A DNA stretch of 64,000 bases, from IMG/VR virus record IMGVR_UViG_3300020049_001346; one strand, 5' to 3'. Of the stretch, positions 3,301-54,117 are shown in pieces. Numbering within the stretch: the first letter of the stretch is position 1; each line of letters starts with the position of its first letter. Origin of the DNA: an uncultured virus (IMG/VR IMGVR_UViG_3300020049_001346). Its lineage: Duplodnaviria; Heunggongvirae; Uroviricota; Caudoviricetes. The notes below the pieces were generated by a model. The model saw nothing but the letters and a program-made list of their open reading frames with translations. It ran no database searches and was not told where the DNA came from. The position numbers were made by a program, and so were the translations under genes.

Positions 3301-6300
3301 CTCCAGCATCAGCTTGTTCTTCTGTAATTACAAATAATTTTTTTACATCTAAATACGCTTTAACTAAATTCTTTCCATACCCTGAAGCATATTCTTTATT
3401 TCCAGAAAAAAACGCATCTGCATCTCTAAACTTTAAATTATCTTCGTTTGTTCCATGGTAAACAATTAATGGATTACCATTATTATCAACAACTTTTGTT
3501 GTTTTTAATTCTGGATTATCTTTCAATACTTTCTCTTCTGTTAACTGTGAGCGTTGAATAGTTTTTACACCAATTCCATAAGGGGCAACTACTTGCTGTT
3601 GCATTGACTTGCTTAACTCCTTATATTTATCCTTAACTTCAGTAGGCATTATATCAAATGCATTAACCTTTATATCTGGAACTCCAACAACATCACCTAA
3701 TATATCATTCTCATATGTAGAATGATTAGACTTTCCTCCAAATCCAGTTGGTTTTAATACCAACATTATATCGTTTAAATCAAAATTATTATCTGCATAA
3801 AATCCATCTCTAAGTTCATTTAGATCTACAATAGAATTATATTTTTCTAATGTATTTTTTAATGGAGTATTCTTTTCTTTTTGATCTTGTACAGCTAATA
3901 AGAAATCTTTTCTTTTTACTGAGTTCTTTAACTCTTCCCAAGAATTTATAGACGAAAGTATTTCATTTATAGATTTTATTTTAGATGATTCTAGTACATC
4001 TTTTTTAAACGTATCAAAATCTCCAGCTCTTTTAGCTACAATATCAATAATACTTTTATTAAATAATTTACTCTTAATAGGAGAACCACTAATAATAAAT
4101 ATATAATCTGATTTTCCTATTAATTTATTTATTTCATTTTCATTTTTACCAGTGGCCCATATTACATTTTTATCTCTATTAATAGGATCTAATGCAAATG
4201 AAGGACCAGCATCTAAATAATGTTCCTTGCCTATGGTTTTATCAGAATAGTTTCCTCTTCCTAATTGATCTGCAACCCAGAACCAAACCTTTTCTTTTTT
4301 ATCAGATATATCTTTCATTAAAGAATCCATATCTATTAGATCAGATTTTTTGACGAATGACAATTCATGATCACCAACCTCTACTTTTTCTTCCTTTGTT
4401 TTTTGAAATCTTTTTATAAGTGTAGGCACTGAAATATATGTAGAAGCACCTTCAGTTATAGCCTTAATATCATTCTCACTAATAACCTCACCAGTGGATA
4501 TCTTCCCAGCTAGTGTGTTGAGTAAGTCTATTACCTCGTTGTCTTTAAATGGTTTGATTCTAAACATCTTAGCCAGTGCCTCTAACCATCTCTTAACTAT
4601 ACTCTTGTTAGCTGGAGACATCTTTGGATACCCATCAGCTATGATACCGATTAACTCTGCAAGTCTCTCCTCATCCCTGATAGTCTTGTCTGTGTACCTT
4701 GCAGCGAACGCGTCCAGCTCAGCCCTTAACTCTGGACTTGCGGTCTTGTAGACAGCGTCAACCATACGGGCGGTTATCTCCTGAACAGCCTTGTCACCCT
4801 TTATCTTGTCTAAGATCACAGCATGGAAGACCTCGTGAGCAACAGTCCTGCCGTTGGCCTTCTGTTTGTTTATGTGAATTACTTTGTCTCCATTTGAATA
4901 CATTATATATGTACCACTAGAGCTATCTCCTACGGCCTTCTTATACGCCTCGTTAGTCTCGTGAACAATAAACTCAACACCAGGAAGTATTCCCTTTAGT
5001 GCCTCCTTAGCGTTGTCAACCTGTGATTCTCTAAAGCCCTTCTCACTCTCATCAAATAGCTTTGCTAGGCCCTCAAGCTCCGTGTCGATGGATGGCTCTA
5101 AAAACGAGTCTCTGTAAGCCATAGCCTCGTCGTAGTCATCAAAGGTCTTCTCCTCTATGTCTAGCTTACCCTCTGGGTCGTAGACCATTGCAACCACATC
5201 TGGTGTGCCGTGCTTTTCTTTGTTATAACCAGCAGGAACTCCATACTCCAAACTAAAAGGAACTCTAGATACAACCCTGAATCCAGCCTTAATGTACTGT
5301 GGCGTAAGGTACGTGTCAAAGTTGTCCAGCTTCTTACCACCAGCAGCTATCGCTCTCTTTAGTAGATCCTGTGCAACTCCCTTGGCCTTTGATGTGGCCT
5401 TCTTAAACAATCCAGCGATGTCACCGTCAGGCTTAACTATAGCGGCACCATCAGGTGTATCTATAATGGTTCCCTTTGCTGCGTCTTCTGCAGATACTGG
5501 ACTTACGGACCAGTAGGCCTCTGGATCAGACTCCTTAGTCTTGTCTAACTCTTCGGAGTACTGTTCTGCTTGAGTCTTTGGAGCACCTGGCTCAGTAACT
5601 TCAACTGCTGTTGCTTGGGTAGCTTCTTCAGCCTCTCTAAGTTGTCGATTGAGTTCTTCATCGTTTTCTAATATTTCGTTTATAGCTTGTCTCTGTTCTG
5701 GCGTCTCTGTCTGCTTTAGTAGAACCTGATACGCAGCGTCCTCAGCAACCTGTCCCTCGTACATTACGGTCTTTCCAGCGTCATCCTTTAGGGACACAGC
5801 CTTAACATTACCGTCATTGTCATACTCGATACCATAGTTTGGTAAATCAGACTGCATGTTCCACTCGTTCTCTCCTACCTTAACCTTACCCTCTGGAGTT
5901 ACGCTTACTATCTCCTCCTGTGGCTTAATTCCTAGTTCCTCTACGGTCTTGTCAGATATCTCATCGATATTTCCAAGGTCGTATATCTTCTTGTTCTTGT
6001 CCTCGAATATAACCCTCTGACCCTCCTGGTACACGTCACCATCGATAGGAGTCTCTAGCTTAACACCAGCCTGTGACTCAAGGGTGGCAGGTCTGTTTAT
6101 AACGTCTGTTACCTTCTGCTCTGATGGTTTTATTTCAACCTCTTCTACTGCTCTATCTTCAACATACGTATCGTTTAGTATTGAATTTTTTAATTCAACA
6201 TTTTCAACAGCCTCTTTTTTTAATCCTTCTAGTAGTATTGCCTTAGTTTCAATTGTTATTTCATCTGAACTATTTATTTCTTTAGCCTTAGAAGTAAGCT

Positions 6301-7747: not shown

Positions 7748-9268
7748 TTATTTTTTTGTGTATGTATTCCCGTCAGGACCTACTAATGATTGACCTTTCT
7801 TTAATTTAGCCCACTTTGAATTAAAATCAGACTGTGTACCTGAACTAGCAGCGCCCTTCCTCAAATCAACTAGTCCTGACTGACTCTTAAGATACTCTCT
7901 AGCTTCAGTTGCTGAATTAAATCCTGTAGCTCTTAACTTAGTAGAAAAAGCAGGGTTATCTTGACCTATTGTATGGCTTGTTTGTTTCTTTACAGTCTCT
8001 CTATAGTTATCTTCAGTAATAGACTCTGAACCCTCATATGTAATATAGTCCATCTGTAACTTACCATTTCTAATCTGTAGTTTAGTTATTTCATCTACAA
8101 CTCCAGGACCTCTCTTTATAGGTACGTTTTGAATACCTAACTGTGCTCCAACAATTCTATTTGCTGTATCTTTTATTGGTAAAACATCTCCAAGTTGAGG
8201 TCGTTTAGCCTCCTGAGCTAATCTTTGTGCTTCTGTAAGTCCTTTATCAGATCCACCACGTCCACTACTTGTAGTCTTAATAGGCTCTGCCTCGTATCCA
8301 AGCTGTGACCTTAGGTTGTCCTTAACAGCCTTTCTAGCCTCTTCCATCTGTGCTTGTGTAAAGTCAGCTGGGTTATAGTTTCCAGAACCATCCTTCTTAT
8401 ACACGATTAGTTTTCCTTCATCTGCGGCCTTCTTTTCTTCTGGATTATATAGTTTAGGATCTACCTGAAATGTGCTCTTATATCCACCCACAGTGTCCAT
8501 CAGTACGCTTCCAATTGCCCTATCTGTTGATAGAACACTATTAGCAACCTGGTCTGCCATTTTTGTGTACTCTGGTCTTGCTGTTGGATCTGATACCATC
8601 ATTCCAGCAGTCATCTTCTTGAACTCTGCTATCTTGCTATTCTTAGCAACCTCAGCGGTTACATTAACTTTCTGTGCAGGATCTCCAACCATCTTTAAGA
8701 AACCAGTTGCGCTCTGTGGCTGAAAGTTTCTAGTATCTATCTTACCATCCTTGTCGTACTCAGCAACGTATAGATTACCACTAGCAGGGTCTATGAATGC
8801 CTTCTTTTTTTGCCAGTCCTGCATACTACCAAGGTACTCCATCATATCTGCAGCCTGCTGCCCAACTAGTCCCTTGTTCTGCATGTCCACAAACCTGTCG
8901 TAGTTAGCGTTCCAGTTCTTAGTAACGCCAGTAAATGCACCCCAGGAGTCCTTCTGATTCTGAAGATTCATCTTGTACTGGTTAGGGTCTATCTTGCCCT
9001 GTTTAAGAAGTTTCTGTTGCATTAGAGTGTACTGCTTGGTAGAGTTGGCCGCGTCCTGAATAAACGTACCCATAGACTGGCTATGTCCAGCATCAACCTT
9101 ATTAATCTCTTCAACAAAACCCTGGGTTACCTCATCGATTTCCTTACGCTTTGCCTCCCTACCCTCTTCAATCTTTGTTAGATTCTGTGTAAGGTCGCTT
9201 GCAATCTTACCCCAGTCAACTATAGGGTTACCTGCCTCACCTCTGTCCTTATATCCGTAGTATTCCAT
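7748..9268 (-). CDS. Putative internal virion (cargo/ejection) protein
   Basis: 506 aa, helical-looking, between a small Ala/Gln-rich virion protein and the giant protein, as in podovirus ejectosome clusters. Confidence 0.55.
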   Translation of the reverse strand: MEYYGYKDRGEAGNPIVDWGKIASDLTQNLTKIEEGREAKRKEIDEVTQGFVEEINKVDAGHSQSMGTFIQDAANSTKQYTLMQQKLLKQGKIDPNQYKMNLQNQKDSWGAFTGVTKNWNANYDRFVDMQNKGLVGQQAADMMEYLGSMQDWQKKKAFIDPASGNLYVAEYDKDGKIDTRNFQPQSATGFLKMVGDPAQKVNVTAEVAKNSKIAEFKKMTAGMMVSDPTARPEYTKMADQVANSVLSTDRAIGSVLMDTVGGYKSTFQVDPKLYNPEEKKAADEGKLIVYKKDGSGNYNPADFTQAQMEEARKAVKDNLRSQLGYEAEPIKTTSSGRGGSDKGLTEAQRLAQEAKRPQLGDVLPIKDTANRIVGAQLGIQNVPIKRGPGVVDEITKLQIRNGKLQMDYITYEGSESITEDNYRETVKKQTSHTIGQDNPAFSTKLRATGFNSATEAREYLKSQSGLVDLRKGAASSGTQSDFNSKWAKLKKGQSLVGPDGNTYTKK

Positions 9269-45834: not shown

Positions 45835-46140
45835 AATTTTTTTTACAAAGATACAATAATTTTGTTTTAATAATAACGGGGTTAAAAAAATATGTCATAA
45901 ATTTTTAGGCATTACGTTATATAGTCAATCTGCGTGAGCCGTCCAAAATGGAAACCGATTCTTTTTCGAGGGGTGGGGTACCAAAAGCAAGATTTCCCTC
46001 CAGATTTCTAGGCTTTTCCTGGGGTGCCAGGTGGGTACCTCTCCAGACCACACGTCAACTAGGTGGGTATCCCGCCATGTTGCTCCATGCCGTCTGTCTG
46101 TCGCTTGTTTCGTAGAGTAAACCACATAGATAATGCGGTC

Positions 46141-46471
46141 AATGTAGAATAAATGTAAGGAAATGTAAGCCAAATGTAAAGAAAATGCAGGGCTTACATC
46201 GTGTGAGCCGTTGATATCACTACGATTGTCAATGATAATGTAGAAATGCGCGCTCAACCCCTATATACAGCCTATAGATAATTATTATAATATATATATT
46301 TTTTTCGCTACGAAGAAGGGAGTAAAGTTTACATTCTTACATTTTTTAGGCTAAAGTCAATGATACCAAGTGCTACGGCGATGTAAAACTTTTTTGAACT
46401 TTACATTATTTTGGGCAACTTTACATTCTAGGGGCTTCCCGAGGTTTTGCTTACATTTTAGGGGCTTCCTG
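46141..46471. repeat. Iteron-like AATGTA/TACATT repeat array flanking an AT-rich core (candidate replication origin)
   Basis: AATGTA at 46141, 46152, 46162, 46173 and 46237; TACATT at 46330, 46338, 46402, 46422 and 46452; AT-rich 46262-46305. Confidence 0.6.
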
Positions 46472-46727
46472 GAGGGCATGTTAAACCCAGGGAACACCTA
46501 CTGTGTTATGCATAGTACTATTTTGTGTTCAGATACCCTCACACGAGCAATAAACCAAGTCCCCTCACGCGCGTGTACTTATTATTAAAAAATAGAGAAA
46601 TCTCGTAACTTGCACGTTATCAATCAATTAGTATATTTGTTAAAATTCCACACCTTGTCAGCCCAATAAAACCGAGCCAAATGTTAAATATTTGTTAATT
46701 AATTAGGATTGTAATTGATAGTTGTCG

Positions 46728-46735
46728 TATGTTTG
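46728..46735 (+). promoter_or_regulatory. Early promoter -7 box (TATGTTTG)
   Basis: TAnnTTTG followed by CA at the head of the plus-strand arm; a second box TATATTTG lies at 46632-46639. Confidence 0.6.
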
Positions 46736-46879
46736 CAGTGTTGAAAGGGTAGAAAATTTGTAAAGACCCTAGATGCAAGTCGACAAGACTATAACTGCGG
46801 GTAAGTCTACTCAGGAATAAGCGATATAGATTTCGTGAAGTCCGAAGACCATGGGGGTATCCAAATAGGAACGAGCATG

Positions 46880-46934
46880 AAACGTACATGGATGTGTTAT
46901 CCATGCTGATGAGCCACAGAATGGCGAAACGTTT
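46880..46934 (+). ncRNA. Hammerhead ribozyme, type III (HH1)
   Basis: Stem III AAACGT/ACGTTT, GUA site (cut after 46886), stem I CATGGAT/ATCCATG, CTGATGA 46906-46912, stem II GCCA/TGGC, GAAA 46926-46929. Confidence 0.9.
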
Positions 46935-46947
46935 AATACTATTTATT

Positions 46948-47139
46948 ATGAAATTATTTACATTAAGACTGTCGCATCCTAATTATCAAAATGAAGTAAT
47001 AATCCTTTTTAGAAAGAAGGAGGATGCAATCGCAGAGTTTGAGCACAAAGCCAATCAATTGAAACTAAAAAAGGTGGCATATGACTTTGCTTACCTAGAC
47101 AACATAGAATTGTCTATCATAGAAAAACAGGTTAACTGA
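46948..47139 (+). CDS. First early small ORF (63 aa)
   Basis: ATG 13 nt after HH1; its TGA stop lies within the HH2 core. Confidence 0.6.
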   Translation: MKLFTLRLSHPNYQNEVIILFRKKEDAIAEFEHKANQLKLKKVAYDFAYLDNIELSIIEKQVN

Positions 47140-47179
47140 TGAGGTCTAAGTGACCGAAACGTCGTGAGACGTCTTAACC
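47130..47179 (+). ncRNA. Hammerhead ribozyme, type I (HH2)
   Basis: Stem I GGTTAA/TTAACC, CTGATGA 47136-47142, stem II GGTC/GACC, GAAA, stem III ACGTC/GACGT, GUC site (cut after 47173). Confidence 0.93.
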
Positions 47180-47196
47180 AATTAAATATATTTAAC

Positions 47197-47491
47197 ATGA
47201 AAAAGAACATCCTATTTTGGGTATTGGTAGCGGTGCTATCAATCACAATTCATTTACTAACTCCTAACTGCTACAGATAATGGGACAGAACTTAAAAGAC
47301 ATCGGACTTGCCCTAGTACTATGGGCAGTATTTATAACTTTAATATCTATTATATGAACAAAGAAATCTTATATAGTCTAGAAGGCTATCCAATTAACCC
47401 TAAACTATACGGTCATTGGAACAAGTTAACACAGAGCGAAAAGAATAACTTGTATGCAAGGTACGTATTTCTATGCGAACAAGAGAGGTAG
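47197..47491 (+). CDS. Three coupled micro-ORFs (47197-47280, 27 aa; 47280-47357, 25 aa; 47354-47491, 45 aa)
   Basis: TAATG and ATGA overlaps; first two are single hydrophobic helices; they fill the gap between HH2 and HH3 exactly. Confidence 0.6.
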
Positions 47492-47543
47492 GTTAACTGA
47501 CGAGTCCTGATTGGACGAAACACCCCAAGTGGGTGTCTTAACC
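47491..47543 (+). ncRNA. Hammerhead ribozyme, type I (HH3)
   Basis: Stem I GGTTAA/TTAACC, CTGACGA 47497-47503, stem II GTCC/GGAC, GAAA, stem III ACACCC/GGGTGT, GUC site (cut after 47537). Confidence 0.93.
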
Positions 47544-47559
47544 ATTAAATATATTTAAC

Positions 47560-49609
47560 ATGAAAGATTCATTAGCTTTATTATCCACCATAGACGTGGA
47601 AAGATTTTATGTGTGCTCGGTTTGGGAGCGAGAGGTAACCTTGCAAGGCAAGGCAAGTACAGAACTTATACAATACTGCAAAGGATTAGGTGTTGATGAA
47701 TTTCAAGTGAGTGACCTTGGTCATTTAAAGGCGGAGATTGGTAAACTTAAAATAGTACTAGCGTAATGAAAAAGTCAATCTATCAGCACATCGCTGACAC
47801 GTACAAGGACGAGGTTCCAACATTGGAACAAGTGACCGCATTAATTAAGGAGCATGCTCCAAACATATCGTCGCCGAGTTTAACCTTCGACGAATTAGTA
47901 ACTAACATTTACGAAAACTATACATCATGGATAAAATAGAACAAGCGAAGGCTATACTTAAGGAAGCGGGTTACTACACGGGTAACCTATGGCACATCAA
48001 CGATGTAAAAGAAGACTACGACATTACTGACGATGAGGCACATGATGTGTTATCAAAGGCACTAAACAACGAGGGAACATTTGACCAAATATGGACAGCT
48101 ATTAAATTTTATGCAGATGATACTACAGAAATATAGACGGCAGTTAGGTCATGACTCAATCACGTTGGCACACGGAAGTAAACCCTTCTTTGTGCCATCG
48201 TCATTTGAGCACAAGGATGTGAGTCCTGAACTAGTGGCGATTGAGTTCCCACAGTGGTTCCTAGACAAGCACAAGCAGACCATAGAAGAGATAGAGTTCA
48301 GTACTAACTTATTAATAGAGAGAATATGCGACCAAGGATAACACTAGTTAATCAGACCATCAGGTCAATCAGGGAGCGTGAGCAGAAGTTCACGGCGCTT
48401 GTAAAGTACGAGTGCAAAGAGAACCCACAACTGAAGTGGCACGAAGCCAAGCGAGAGGTAAAGTACAGAATTTTTAATAAGACAATAGGATGGATACAGC
48501 AATAGTAGTTGAGACGGGAGAGAGTGTAGAGATAGTGCACAGAGGTTTTGATATTGTAATAATACAATTCAGTGACGGGACACAGAAACTTGTGAGACCC
48601 GATGAGGTTGGACTAACTAAAAGAAAGAGACCAAAGTTATGGAAGCTATACTAGAGAGAGCCTTCGTGAAGGCGATGGTCAAGGTGATGAGCCTTGAGGA
48701 CGAGTTGAAAGACATTGACAAGGCTATGTATGACGATCACCACCTTGAAATAATCAGGACAAGTATAGAGCGCGACCTAGAGGCGTGGAAATTAATCTTA
48801 AAACTAATTGAGAATGAAAGCAAAGGTAATAGTAAGTAGGGGTGCATATAGCATCGGTCACGATTGGTGTCTAGTCCTAGAGACAAAGAAGCACCACCAA
48901 CGATTCTATTTGGGTCAAGATAACAAGTTCTGTACTAGGGTATTAGGTCTAAGCACATCAGATGTTGTCGCTAGGATAGGCACCCGAGAGATAGACAACG
49001 ACACGAAGGGCAACCGCATATTGGCCAAGTTCATATGCAAACAACTAAACATTAACGGACACAACTTCAAGTGCATCGAGGCGTGGGGTCTGTGTGCACA
49101 ATAACTAAAGACATGACACATTTTAAATCAGACGAGTTAGAGTTCTTCAACAAGTTCACAGACAAGCGGGTTAATGTAGGAGATGGCACTACGACCATAA
49201 GAGTCAAGCCAAAGGAGACACAGCTAGACCTACAGATTGAGGTGGCTAGGAAGACGAGTATTAACATAGTAACGTGTGGAGACTGCGGTAGCACACTACT
49301 ACACAGACAATCGGACGAGACCATAACGTGTCCTGACTGTGGATTTAGTAGTGAGCCTTGCGACTTCCCTAACTTAAACTACTAGAAATGAAAGAAGAGT
49401 ATATCAGAATGCGTAACAGTGGGCAGTATAACATAGAGTGGTTCCACAAGTATTACAGAAGCAAGGGGGGTAGAGACATCCCCCTTCAGGACTTCCACAT
49501 GGTGTTTCAGACGGCTAACCTAGATCAGGTTTTAGATAGAATAGATAAAGAGTATAACCTTACATCATTATATGATGTAAATAATAAACTAATAAAGACA
49601 TGGCAATAA
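47560..49609 (+). CDS. Run of small early hypothetical ORFs (including 47560-47766, 47927-48136, 48639-48839, ~48814-49104, ~49113-49385 Zn-ribbon, 49388-49609)
   Basis: Tightly packed, coupled ORFs; CGDC..CPDC in the ORF ending at 49385. Confidence 0.6.
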
Positions 49610-50539: not shown

Positions 50540-50611
50540 AGTCAGGTGGCAGTAATTGGTAACTGCGAAGCATTATGCATAGAAATACAGGTTCGAATCC
50601 TGTCCTGACTA
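50540..50611 (+). tRNA. tRNA-like RNA with degenerate anticodon arm
   Basis: Acceptor AGTCAGG/CCTGACT, D arm GCAG-TAATTGGTAA-CTGC, T arm ACAGG-TTCGAAT-CCTGT; no canonical anticodon stem-loop. Confidence 0.65.
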
Positions 50612-53943: not shown

Positions 53944-53990
53944 CAAATTTGTTGTATATTTGTTGCGGATTATGGTGTCCATGGTCGGTT

Positions 53991-54062
53991 TGTTGTATAG
54001 TTTAGCGGTAGAATAGGCCTTGTTTAATAGGCTAGACGAGGGTTCGAGTCCCTCTGCAACAT
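53991..54062 (+). tRNA. tRNA-like gene with 8-nt anticodon loop (TGTTTAAT)
   Basis: Acceptor TGTTGTA/TGCAACA, D arm GTTT-AGCGGTA-GAAT, anticodon stem GGCCT/AGGCT, T arm GAGGG-TTCGAGT-CCCTC; -7 box TATATTTG at 53955-53962. Confidence 0.7.
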
Positions 54063-54117
54063 CAAACTGAATAGCCGACGGCAGTACAACTAGGTAGGCA
54101 AAATTAAATTTAATAAA

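Follow-up and report, generated by a model that had tools for sequence, protein, structure and literature searches.

Three hammerhead ribozymes at the first gene boundaries of a plus-strand phage operon, probably acting as self-cleaving elements of its transcript

Why does a phage carry three hammerhead ribozymes in close succession at the head of a single gene cluster? The question is raised by the uncultured virus IMGVR_UViG_3300020049_001346 (Caudoviricetes), of which a stretch of 64,000 nt, hereafter called the window, was analysed. In a sequence-only reading of this DNA, the three motifs, here named HH1, HH2, and HH3, had been proposed to cut the earliest polycistronic RNA of the phage into units without the help of host enzymes. 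Judging from sequence comparisons, we consider it probable that HH1 to HH3 are active hammerheads in a plus-strand transcript, which runs from a divergent control region into an operon of small genes and replication genes.

Sequence reading and structural scan agree on three complete plus-strand hammerheads, placed as noted before and with the same predicted new 5′ ends (46887, 47174, and 47538). HH1 consists of AAACGUA↓C, a stem I hairpin of 7–8 bp, CUGAUGA, stem II GCCA/UGGC, GAAA, and stem III AAACGU/ACGUUU. HH2 is composed of stem I GGUUAA/UUAACC, CUGAUGA, stem II GGUC/GACC, GAAA, stem III CGUC/GACG, and GUC↓. HH3 has the same stem I as HH2, followed by CUGACGA, stem II GUCC/GGAC, stem III CACCC/GGGUG, and GUC↓. 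Thus, as had also been noted, stems II and III of HH2 and HH3 differ in sequence and are fully paired in both. The core box C3-U4-G5-A6-N7-G8-A9 is present in all three motifs, and in each of them GAAA is followed by a stem III closed by an A-U pair (A15.1-U16.1), while H17 is not G (GUA, GUC, and GUC). The three-helix layout of the hammerhead class, with stem II opening on G10.1-C11.1, is found in each motif, and minimum-energy folds calculated with ViennaRNA reproduce the three-way junction for HH1, HH2, and HH3.

In the structural scan, both strands were examined for types I, II, and III under the requirement of the exact core, at least 4 bp in stems I and III, at least 3 bp in stem II, and an H17 other than G. 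Exactly three complete hammerheads were found in the window, all on the plus strand and spanning 664 nt, with stems I/II/III of 8/4/6 bp (HH1), 6/4/5 bp (HH2), and 6/4/6 bp (HH3). Under these strict rules, no complete motif appeared in 200 dinucleotide shuffles. Under relaxed rules, the shuffles averaged 0.25 per window, and one additional weak match, on the minus strand (8007–8073), appeared in the real window. The bare core pattern taken alone is not significant (4 in the window against 2.25 expected); as it is not rare, the full architecture is what counts.

The motifs are conserved in relatives, and their stems change in a compensatory manner. Among GenBank phages, only the 68 Flavobacterium "elemo" podoviruses (Elemovirus, host Flavobacterium sp. 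BAL314) match the hammerhead region. Their match comprises 75 bases at 85% identity, and this stretch coincides with HH1. An HH1 orthologue is found at the equivalent leader position in the 68 elemo records and in the related contigs L016, L020, L022, L044, and L112. Compared with phage elemoA, HH1 shows three compensatory pairs. Compared with L112, it shows four differences, which are exactly two compensatory pairs. HH2 and its L112 counterpart differ at 11 of their 50 positions; every change falls in stem II, stem III, or the loops of these stems, and pairing is kept. HH3 orthologues in L016, L022, and L112 have different stems that are fully paired; the L112 copy differs by five substitutions and four gaps in 53 nt with the fold retained. 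In the same comparison (47354–47543), the adjacent ORF4 (ORF for open reading frame) differs at 0 of 138 positions. The stems of HH3 appear either to turn over much faster than their flanks or to have been exchanged by recombination. The order of a type III copy followed by type I copies recurs in L016, L020, L022, L044, L062, and L112, which answers the suggestion of the sequence-only reading that related contigs be checked for the same arrangement. Among the kin of the window, the type III copy comes after a switch of strand or a long stretch of non-coding DNA. A general rule that type III always comes first was rejected: it is true for the kin of the window, but in L062, L037, L023, and L055 the type III copy is preceded by a plus-strand ORF. 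The cultured phage elemoA carries the leader type III copy and, about 1.8 kb downstream, one type I copy (51.8 bits with the family model described below), located 28 nt 5′ of an annotated coding sequence start. In the elemoA record (L001), the minus-strand hypothetical coding sequence elemo79Aphanotate_43 (4757–4864) overlaps this type I hammerhead on the opposite strand and is probably a spurious gene call. We found nothing relevant in the literature on ribozymes in elemo phages, and PMC7077304 contains no mention of the word ribozyme.

HH2 and HH3 belong to a large family of phage type I hammerheads. A pattern that fixed only the 5′ half (stem I 5′ strand, core, and CGAAAC) found at least 131 loci in IMG/VR. 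Several of the listed loci overlap on one contig, and counts are therefore not independent. All family counts given here are among the matches listed. A complete hammerhead under strict rules was present in 114 of the 131, and 8 of the 17 failures pass the relaxed rules. Of the 58 loci with a length of 5 kb or more, 30 contain at least two hammerheads, which always share one strand and number as many as seven within 6 kb. When 124 distinct type I copies were aligned, double changes were seen at 11 of 16 pairs (442 cells); the covariation score was reached in 0 of 500 shuffles, and slid registers fall to 24–40% paired. As the rows had been pre-selected for pairing, the 99% paired positions are given by construction, and the diversity of the pairs is the real evidence. 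A covariance model of the 124 members, of which HH2 and HH3 are training members, finds only these two in the window with filters off, the next best match scoring 11 bits.

A second sample, in which stem I was unconstrained, gave 138 loci with 128 unique complete hammerheads (121 type I, 6 type III, and 1 type II). Almost without exception, stem I comprises 6 bp in this sample. A universal GGUUAA in stem I was rejected, since this sequence is found in just 13 of the 121 type I copies. A search of one-genome-per-species contigs with the GGUUAA pattern hit 21 stretches. Seven of these bear titles of taxa that we take to be Bacteroidota, among them a complete Paraflavitalea chromosome, and one is titled Balneolaceae; the rest are mostly short contigs of metagenome-assembled genomes with other labels. 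The type I copies also share a frame around stem I. Among 199 copies, an A precedes stem I (−1) in 197 and follows it (+1) in 185. Loop II of these copies reads U-N-A-N-U, and loop position 5 covaries with base +1. Where base +1 is U (7-bp stem I), loop II position 5 is A (5-bp stem II), as seen in 13 cases from roughly five contigs. The two stems are thus coupled in length, and this hints at a tertiary contact of loop II with stem I in the type I family. A contact of this kind is needed for fast cleavage at low Mg2+, and the rate at cellular Mg2+ would depend on it.

The position of the ribozymes relative to genes is as regular as their fold. In the window, each hammerhead lies at a gene boundary, as the sequence-only reading had it: HH1 before ORF1, HH2 at the ORF1 stop, and HH3 at the ORF4 stop. 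The 3′ end of HH1 lies 13 nt 5′ of the ORF1 start codon. The UGA stop of ORF1 (47137–47139) is at the same time the UGA of the HH2 core, and the UAG stop of ORF4 ends on the first base of HH3. ORF2 starts 23 nt past the HH2 cut, ORF5 22 nt past the HH3 cut, and the leader preceding both starts is an exact repeat (Table 1). After cleavage, the ORF2 and ORF5 leaders are predicted to be unstructured, with a minimum free energy of 0 kcal/mol each; a 5′-terminal hairpin in these leaders was ruled out here on the same value. The wider family follows the same pattern. In the pooled samples, an ATG-led ORF begins 15–40 nt past the cut in 195 of 245 unique type I copies, compared with 208 of 1225 random positions. 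The median distance from cut to AUG is 23 nt (interquartile range 21–28). An upstream stop falls within −40 to +25 nt of the first ribozyme base in 229 of 239 copies, mostly inside stem I or the core, and the downstream ORFs are small (median 71 codons, n = 128). Shine-Dalgarno-like words are found in 18 of 129 leaders of the GGUUAA/GAUUAA subfamily, in contrast to 58 of 79 in the others. Bacteroidota do not rely on Shine-Dalgarno pairing, and the scarcity of such words in the subfamily fits hosts of this kind.

Table 1 Hammerheads, genes, and upstream features of the plus-strand region (aa, amino acids)
Feature	Position	Strand	Remarks
Candidate Bacteroidota-type promoter TTG-N19-TATATTTG	46610–46639	+	pattern match only
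Second −7-like box TATGTTTG	46728–46735	+	pattern match only
Presumed 5′ leader removed by HH1	46740–46886	+	from alignments
HH1, type III hammerhead	46880–46934	+	predicted cut after A46886 (GUA↓C)
ORF1	46948–47139	+	63 aa, without known family; UGA stop inside HH2 core
HH2, type I hammerhead	47130–47179	+	predicted cut after C47173 (GUC↓U)
22-nt leader plus start ATTAAATATATTTAACATGAAA, exact repeat copy 1	47181–47202	+	3′ of HH2
ORF2, ORF3, ORF4	47197–47491	+	27 aa hydrophobic, 25 aa hydrophobic, 45 aa; stop and start codons overlapping
HH3, type I hammerhead	47491–47543	+	predicted cut after C47537 (GUC↓U)
ATTAAATATATTTAACATGAAA, exact repeat copy 2	47544–47565	+	3′ of HH3
ORF5	47560–47766	+	68 aa; first gene of the product 3′ of HH3

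How would three such elements act on one transcript? HH1 would cut off a leader of about 145–240 nt, and the ORF1 message would then begin with a 5′-OH and the 8-bp hairpin of the ribozyme itself. In this type III topology, the ribozyme would stay on the downstream product, the reverse of type I. HH2 and HH3 would cut near their own 3′ edge, leaving nearly the whole folded ribozyme on the 3′ end of the upstream piece. That piece would end in a 2′,3′-cyclic phosphate and two hairpins, and the downstream piece would begin with a 5′-OH and an unstructured A/U-rich leader, 22–23 nt before the AUG. With an open helix of just 6 bp in each ribozyme, the cleaved pieces should come apart. Three pieces would be expected: a 287-nt ORF1 message (46887–47173), a 364-nt message (47174–47537) with the ORF2–ORF4 block, which sits between the HH2 and HH3 cuts, and the rest of the operon from 47538. 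The likely benefit would be that each unit has defined ends, is capped by hairpins, and decays and is translated separately. Neither the stability nor the translation of a unit so delimited would then depend on upstream context or on host RNases. In the early region of phage T7, polycistronic RNA is cut between genes by RNase III, which leaves hairpins at the 3′ ends. The T7 sites differ in that a host enzyme cuts and leaves 5′-phosphate and 3′-OH, whereas the cleavage predicted here is autocatalytic and would give 5′-OH and 2′,3′-cyclic phosphate.

Several observations speak against processing of the transcript by hammerheads. The operon has dozens of genes, but no ribozyme is found beyond its first three junctions, so the transcript does not generally need to be cut. 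The stop codons are embedded in the ribozymes, so terminating ribosomes could compete with folding. The tight spacing of stop, ribozyme, and start may reflect genome packing rather than coupling. In L016, L020, and L062, which carry the same leader hammerhead, no TAnnTTTG motif was found within 700 nt upstream. Finally, no Rfam hammerhead model reached its gathering score in the whole window, so that the Rfam search named by the sequence-only reading as a check turned out negative. In E-value mode (46500–47900), HH3 scored 27.5 bits on RF00163 (gathering 34) and 21.3 bits on RF03152 (gathering 56.3). HH1 scored 22.4 bits on RF00008 (gathering 48.5) with stem I poorly aligned, and HH2 was unlisted even at E ≤ 10 in the same range. 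HH1 to HH3 share the catalytic core and helix topology of Hammerhead_1 (RF00163) and Hammerhead_3 (RF00008) and differ in falling below the gathering score or, in the case of HH2, in being unlisted. Since the gathering scores were not reached, class membership was based on the defining features of the class; a gathering threshold is a property of those Rfam models and not a defining feature of the hammerhead class.

The regular spacing allows a different emphasis, namely that the selected function is translation start or insulation. Cleavage would then free a single-stranded 5′-OH leader of fixed length and remove variable upstream RNA, and translation of the gene behind it would become efficient and no longer depend on context. 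HH1 in such a role would resemble the engineered RiboJ insulator. We regard this as possible, though clearly less likely than processing of the transcript. The narrow distance from cut to AUG among the matches listed speaks for it, and so do the exact 22-nt leader repeated behind HH2 and HH3 while the ribozyme stems differ, the predicted lack of structure in these leaders, and the rarity of Shine-Dalgarno words in the GGUUAA/GAUUAA subfamily. A minimal ribosome-binding leader straight after the ribozyme would explain the narrow spacing equally well, however, and most other genes of the operon start without a ribozyme, often overlapping the preceding stop. In RNA mycoviruses, translation initiation is reported to require self-cleavage of a type I hammerhead in the untranslated region (Lopez-Galiano et al. 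2026, PMC13725137), but this is a case of eukaryotic cap-independent translation. That report makes a translation role the boldest reading of the locus: phage type I hammerheads would be translation-start devices, in which cleavage is needed to free the unstructured leader of about 23 nt with its 5′-OH for ribosome loading on internal cistrons. This stronger version is somewhat more doubtful still. If true, it would matter most perhaps in Bacteroidota hosts, which lack Shine-Dalgarno pairing. The invariant A / 6-bp stem I / A frame would then, along with the U-N-A-N-U loop II, represent a tertiary architecture dedicated to fast folding, and the phage elements would be a bacterial counterpart of the cleavage-dependent translation in RNA mycoviruses.

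It is rather unlikely that ribozyme and leader serve mainly as boundaries of exchangeable gene cassettes, with the shared core, stem I, and leader as recombination joints and cleavage as a secondary matter. Signs of exchange are present. L022 lacks ORF1 with HH2 (46948–47181) and also ORF5 (47560–47766), and its junctions lie in the leader/ATGAAA repeats; thus, small genes seem to be gained and lost as cassettes of leader, ORF, and ribozyme. ORF4 is identical to L112 beside a changed HH3, which resembles segment exchange, and ORF1 is only about 66% identical to its L112 counterpart. ORF5, however, was gained or lost without a ribozyme bounding its 3′ side, and the perfect retention of core and pairing in hundreds of copies shows selection on the RNA fold and not just on DNA homology.

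Very little favours the idea that the 364-nt unit between HH2 and HH3, once freed, is joined by ligation into a circular or spliced RNA in the manner of viroid-like RNAs and retrozymes. The two ribozymes share stem I and the 22-nt flank, and RtcB-type ligases accept 5′-OH and 2′,3′-cyclic phosphate ends. On the other hand, the genes of the unit are ordinary small ORFs, no ligase is found among the annotated genes of the window, and spliced or circular products were sought in clustered prophage hammerheads with none found, according to the main text of PMC3088659. Least probable of all is that HH1 to HH3 are chance look-alikes or decayed inactive copies, as the Rfam scores might suggest, because every core position is canonical, shuffles yielded no complete motif, and orthologues and family show compensatory change and covariation.

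Self-processing of the transcript thus remains our preferred explanation, and it has precedents. The main text of Perreault et al. described clustered hammerheads flanking single genes in prophages in 2011 (PMC3088659). Three tandem arrangements were cleaved in vitro, and processing into single-gene mRNAs was proposed for the clusters. HH1 to HH3 agree with these clusters, as presented there, in that several hammerheads lie within a few kb on the same strand and border single genes or short phage blocks. The published clusters are from prophages of Clostridium scindens, Azorhizobium, and Agrobacterium, whereas the present one is from a Flavobacterium-like podovirus, and it shows a fixed order with a type III leader copy followed by type I copies, a stem I that is invariably GGUUAA/UUAACC, and leaders that lack Shine-Dalgarno sequences. 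Ribosome-binding leaders are not discussed in the main text of PMC3088659. The same text reports a hammerhead 13 nt 5′ of the first early gene of a halovirus, and the 5′ end of the early transcript was mapped to the ribozyme site within 3 nt. This HHphage motif of haloviruses HF1 and HF2 is like HH1 in lying a few nt 5′ of the first gene of an early polycistronic transcript and differs in its archaeal virus, variant core, and single copy (PMC3088659, main text). Type I hammerheads in untranslated regions of RNA mycoviruses are also located just 5′ of ORF starts, one of them intergenic and 7 nt before the start; these viruses have RNA genomes and eukaryotic hosts, and for them a role in translation was shown (Lopez-Galiano et al. 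2026, PMC13725137). The role of genome-encoded hammerheads in bacteria and phages is called "largely elusive" in a 2019 review (PMC6765202). Of the proposed host-independent cutting of polycistronic RNA, the part that stood is that the ribozymes are canonical, on the coding strand, between ORFs, and conserved with compensation. The idea itself was published in 2011, and the early operon and its promoter are presumptive.

The surroundings bear on this last point. By PHROG scans, the window is phage DNA. Genes for a portal, a large terminase, a tail-fibre-like protein, very large virion proteins, and a GroEL-like chaperonin lie on the minus strand (326–45195). On the plus strand, many tiny ORFs from about 46.9 kb are followed by genes for an endonuclease VII-like protein, a Sak-like annealing protein, an exonuclease, a primase/helicase, and a helicase. 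The source appears to be a virulent-type Flavobacterium-like podovirus, and gene order suggests that the plus-strand cluster is early. The TAnnTTTG promoter claimed by the sequence-only reading is present as the TATGTTTG box, but the signal is weak: the window contains 93 copies of the 8-mer where 61 would be expected (about 1.5-fold enrichment), and the motif is absent upstream in the three relatives named above. Within the leader, the block 46786–46880 is conserved in primary sequence among the window, L022, and Flavobacterium phage elemoA (L001 2900–3000), and its flanks differ. A structured RNA in the leader (46740–46886) was rejected, since the consensus fold of four sequences is weak (−5.2 kcal/mol) with a covariation term of 0. 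The non-coding stretch of about 690 nt 5′ of the leader contains short direct repeats at 46029–46077 and 46336–46469. Two copies of TTACATTYTAGGGGCTTCC stand 30 nt from each other, and a related copy is found at 46336; AGGTGGGTA-type repeats are spaced by 32 nt. These repeats could be tandem promoters or origin iterons.

The proteins of ORF1 to ORF5 have no PHROG family match, and the neighbouring ORFs gave a single weak one (ORF 47927–48136, E 0.009). From its third-position bias, ORF5 looks like a real gene, as six of seven differences from the relative L112 are at third codon positions. Two tRNA-related elements lie further downstream on the plus strand. The element at 50540–50611, in a 226-nt intergenic gap of the hammerhead operon, scores 38.4 bits on the Rfam tRNA model (gathering 29), has no ARAGORN call, and shows an abnormal-looking anticodon arm whose loop is very short. 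Its role could be that of a processing signal rather than of a decoding tRNA. The tRNA at 53991–54063 scores 50.7 bits and is labelled "tRNA-???" by ARAGORN, with an anticodon loop of apparently 8 nt. The Rfam alignment puts UUA at its anticodon, which would read UAA. A TATATTTG box (53955–53962) is found just 5′ of it. Recoding is not evident, as the long minus-strand genes are open under the standard code.

Taken by itself, the locus is a clean addition to a known phage arrangement and not a new principle, since intergenic clusters of phage hammerheads were already published in 2011. It also shows that phage hammerheads of this subfamily are under-detected by the Rfam models for types I and III. 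The family to which it belongs is very regular, with a fixed distance from cut to AUG, stop codons embedded in the ribozyme, and leaders without Shine-Dalgarno sequences. Two features that were not found in the main text of PMC3088659 may serve specialists, namely the positional rule with its numbers and the A / 6-bp stem I / A frame with its U-N-A-N-U loop. The cultured elemo phages of Flavobacterium sp. BAL314, with their leader type III and one type I hammerhead, offer a laboratory system in which cutting can be related to the stability and translation of phage mRNA.

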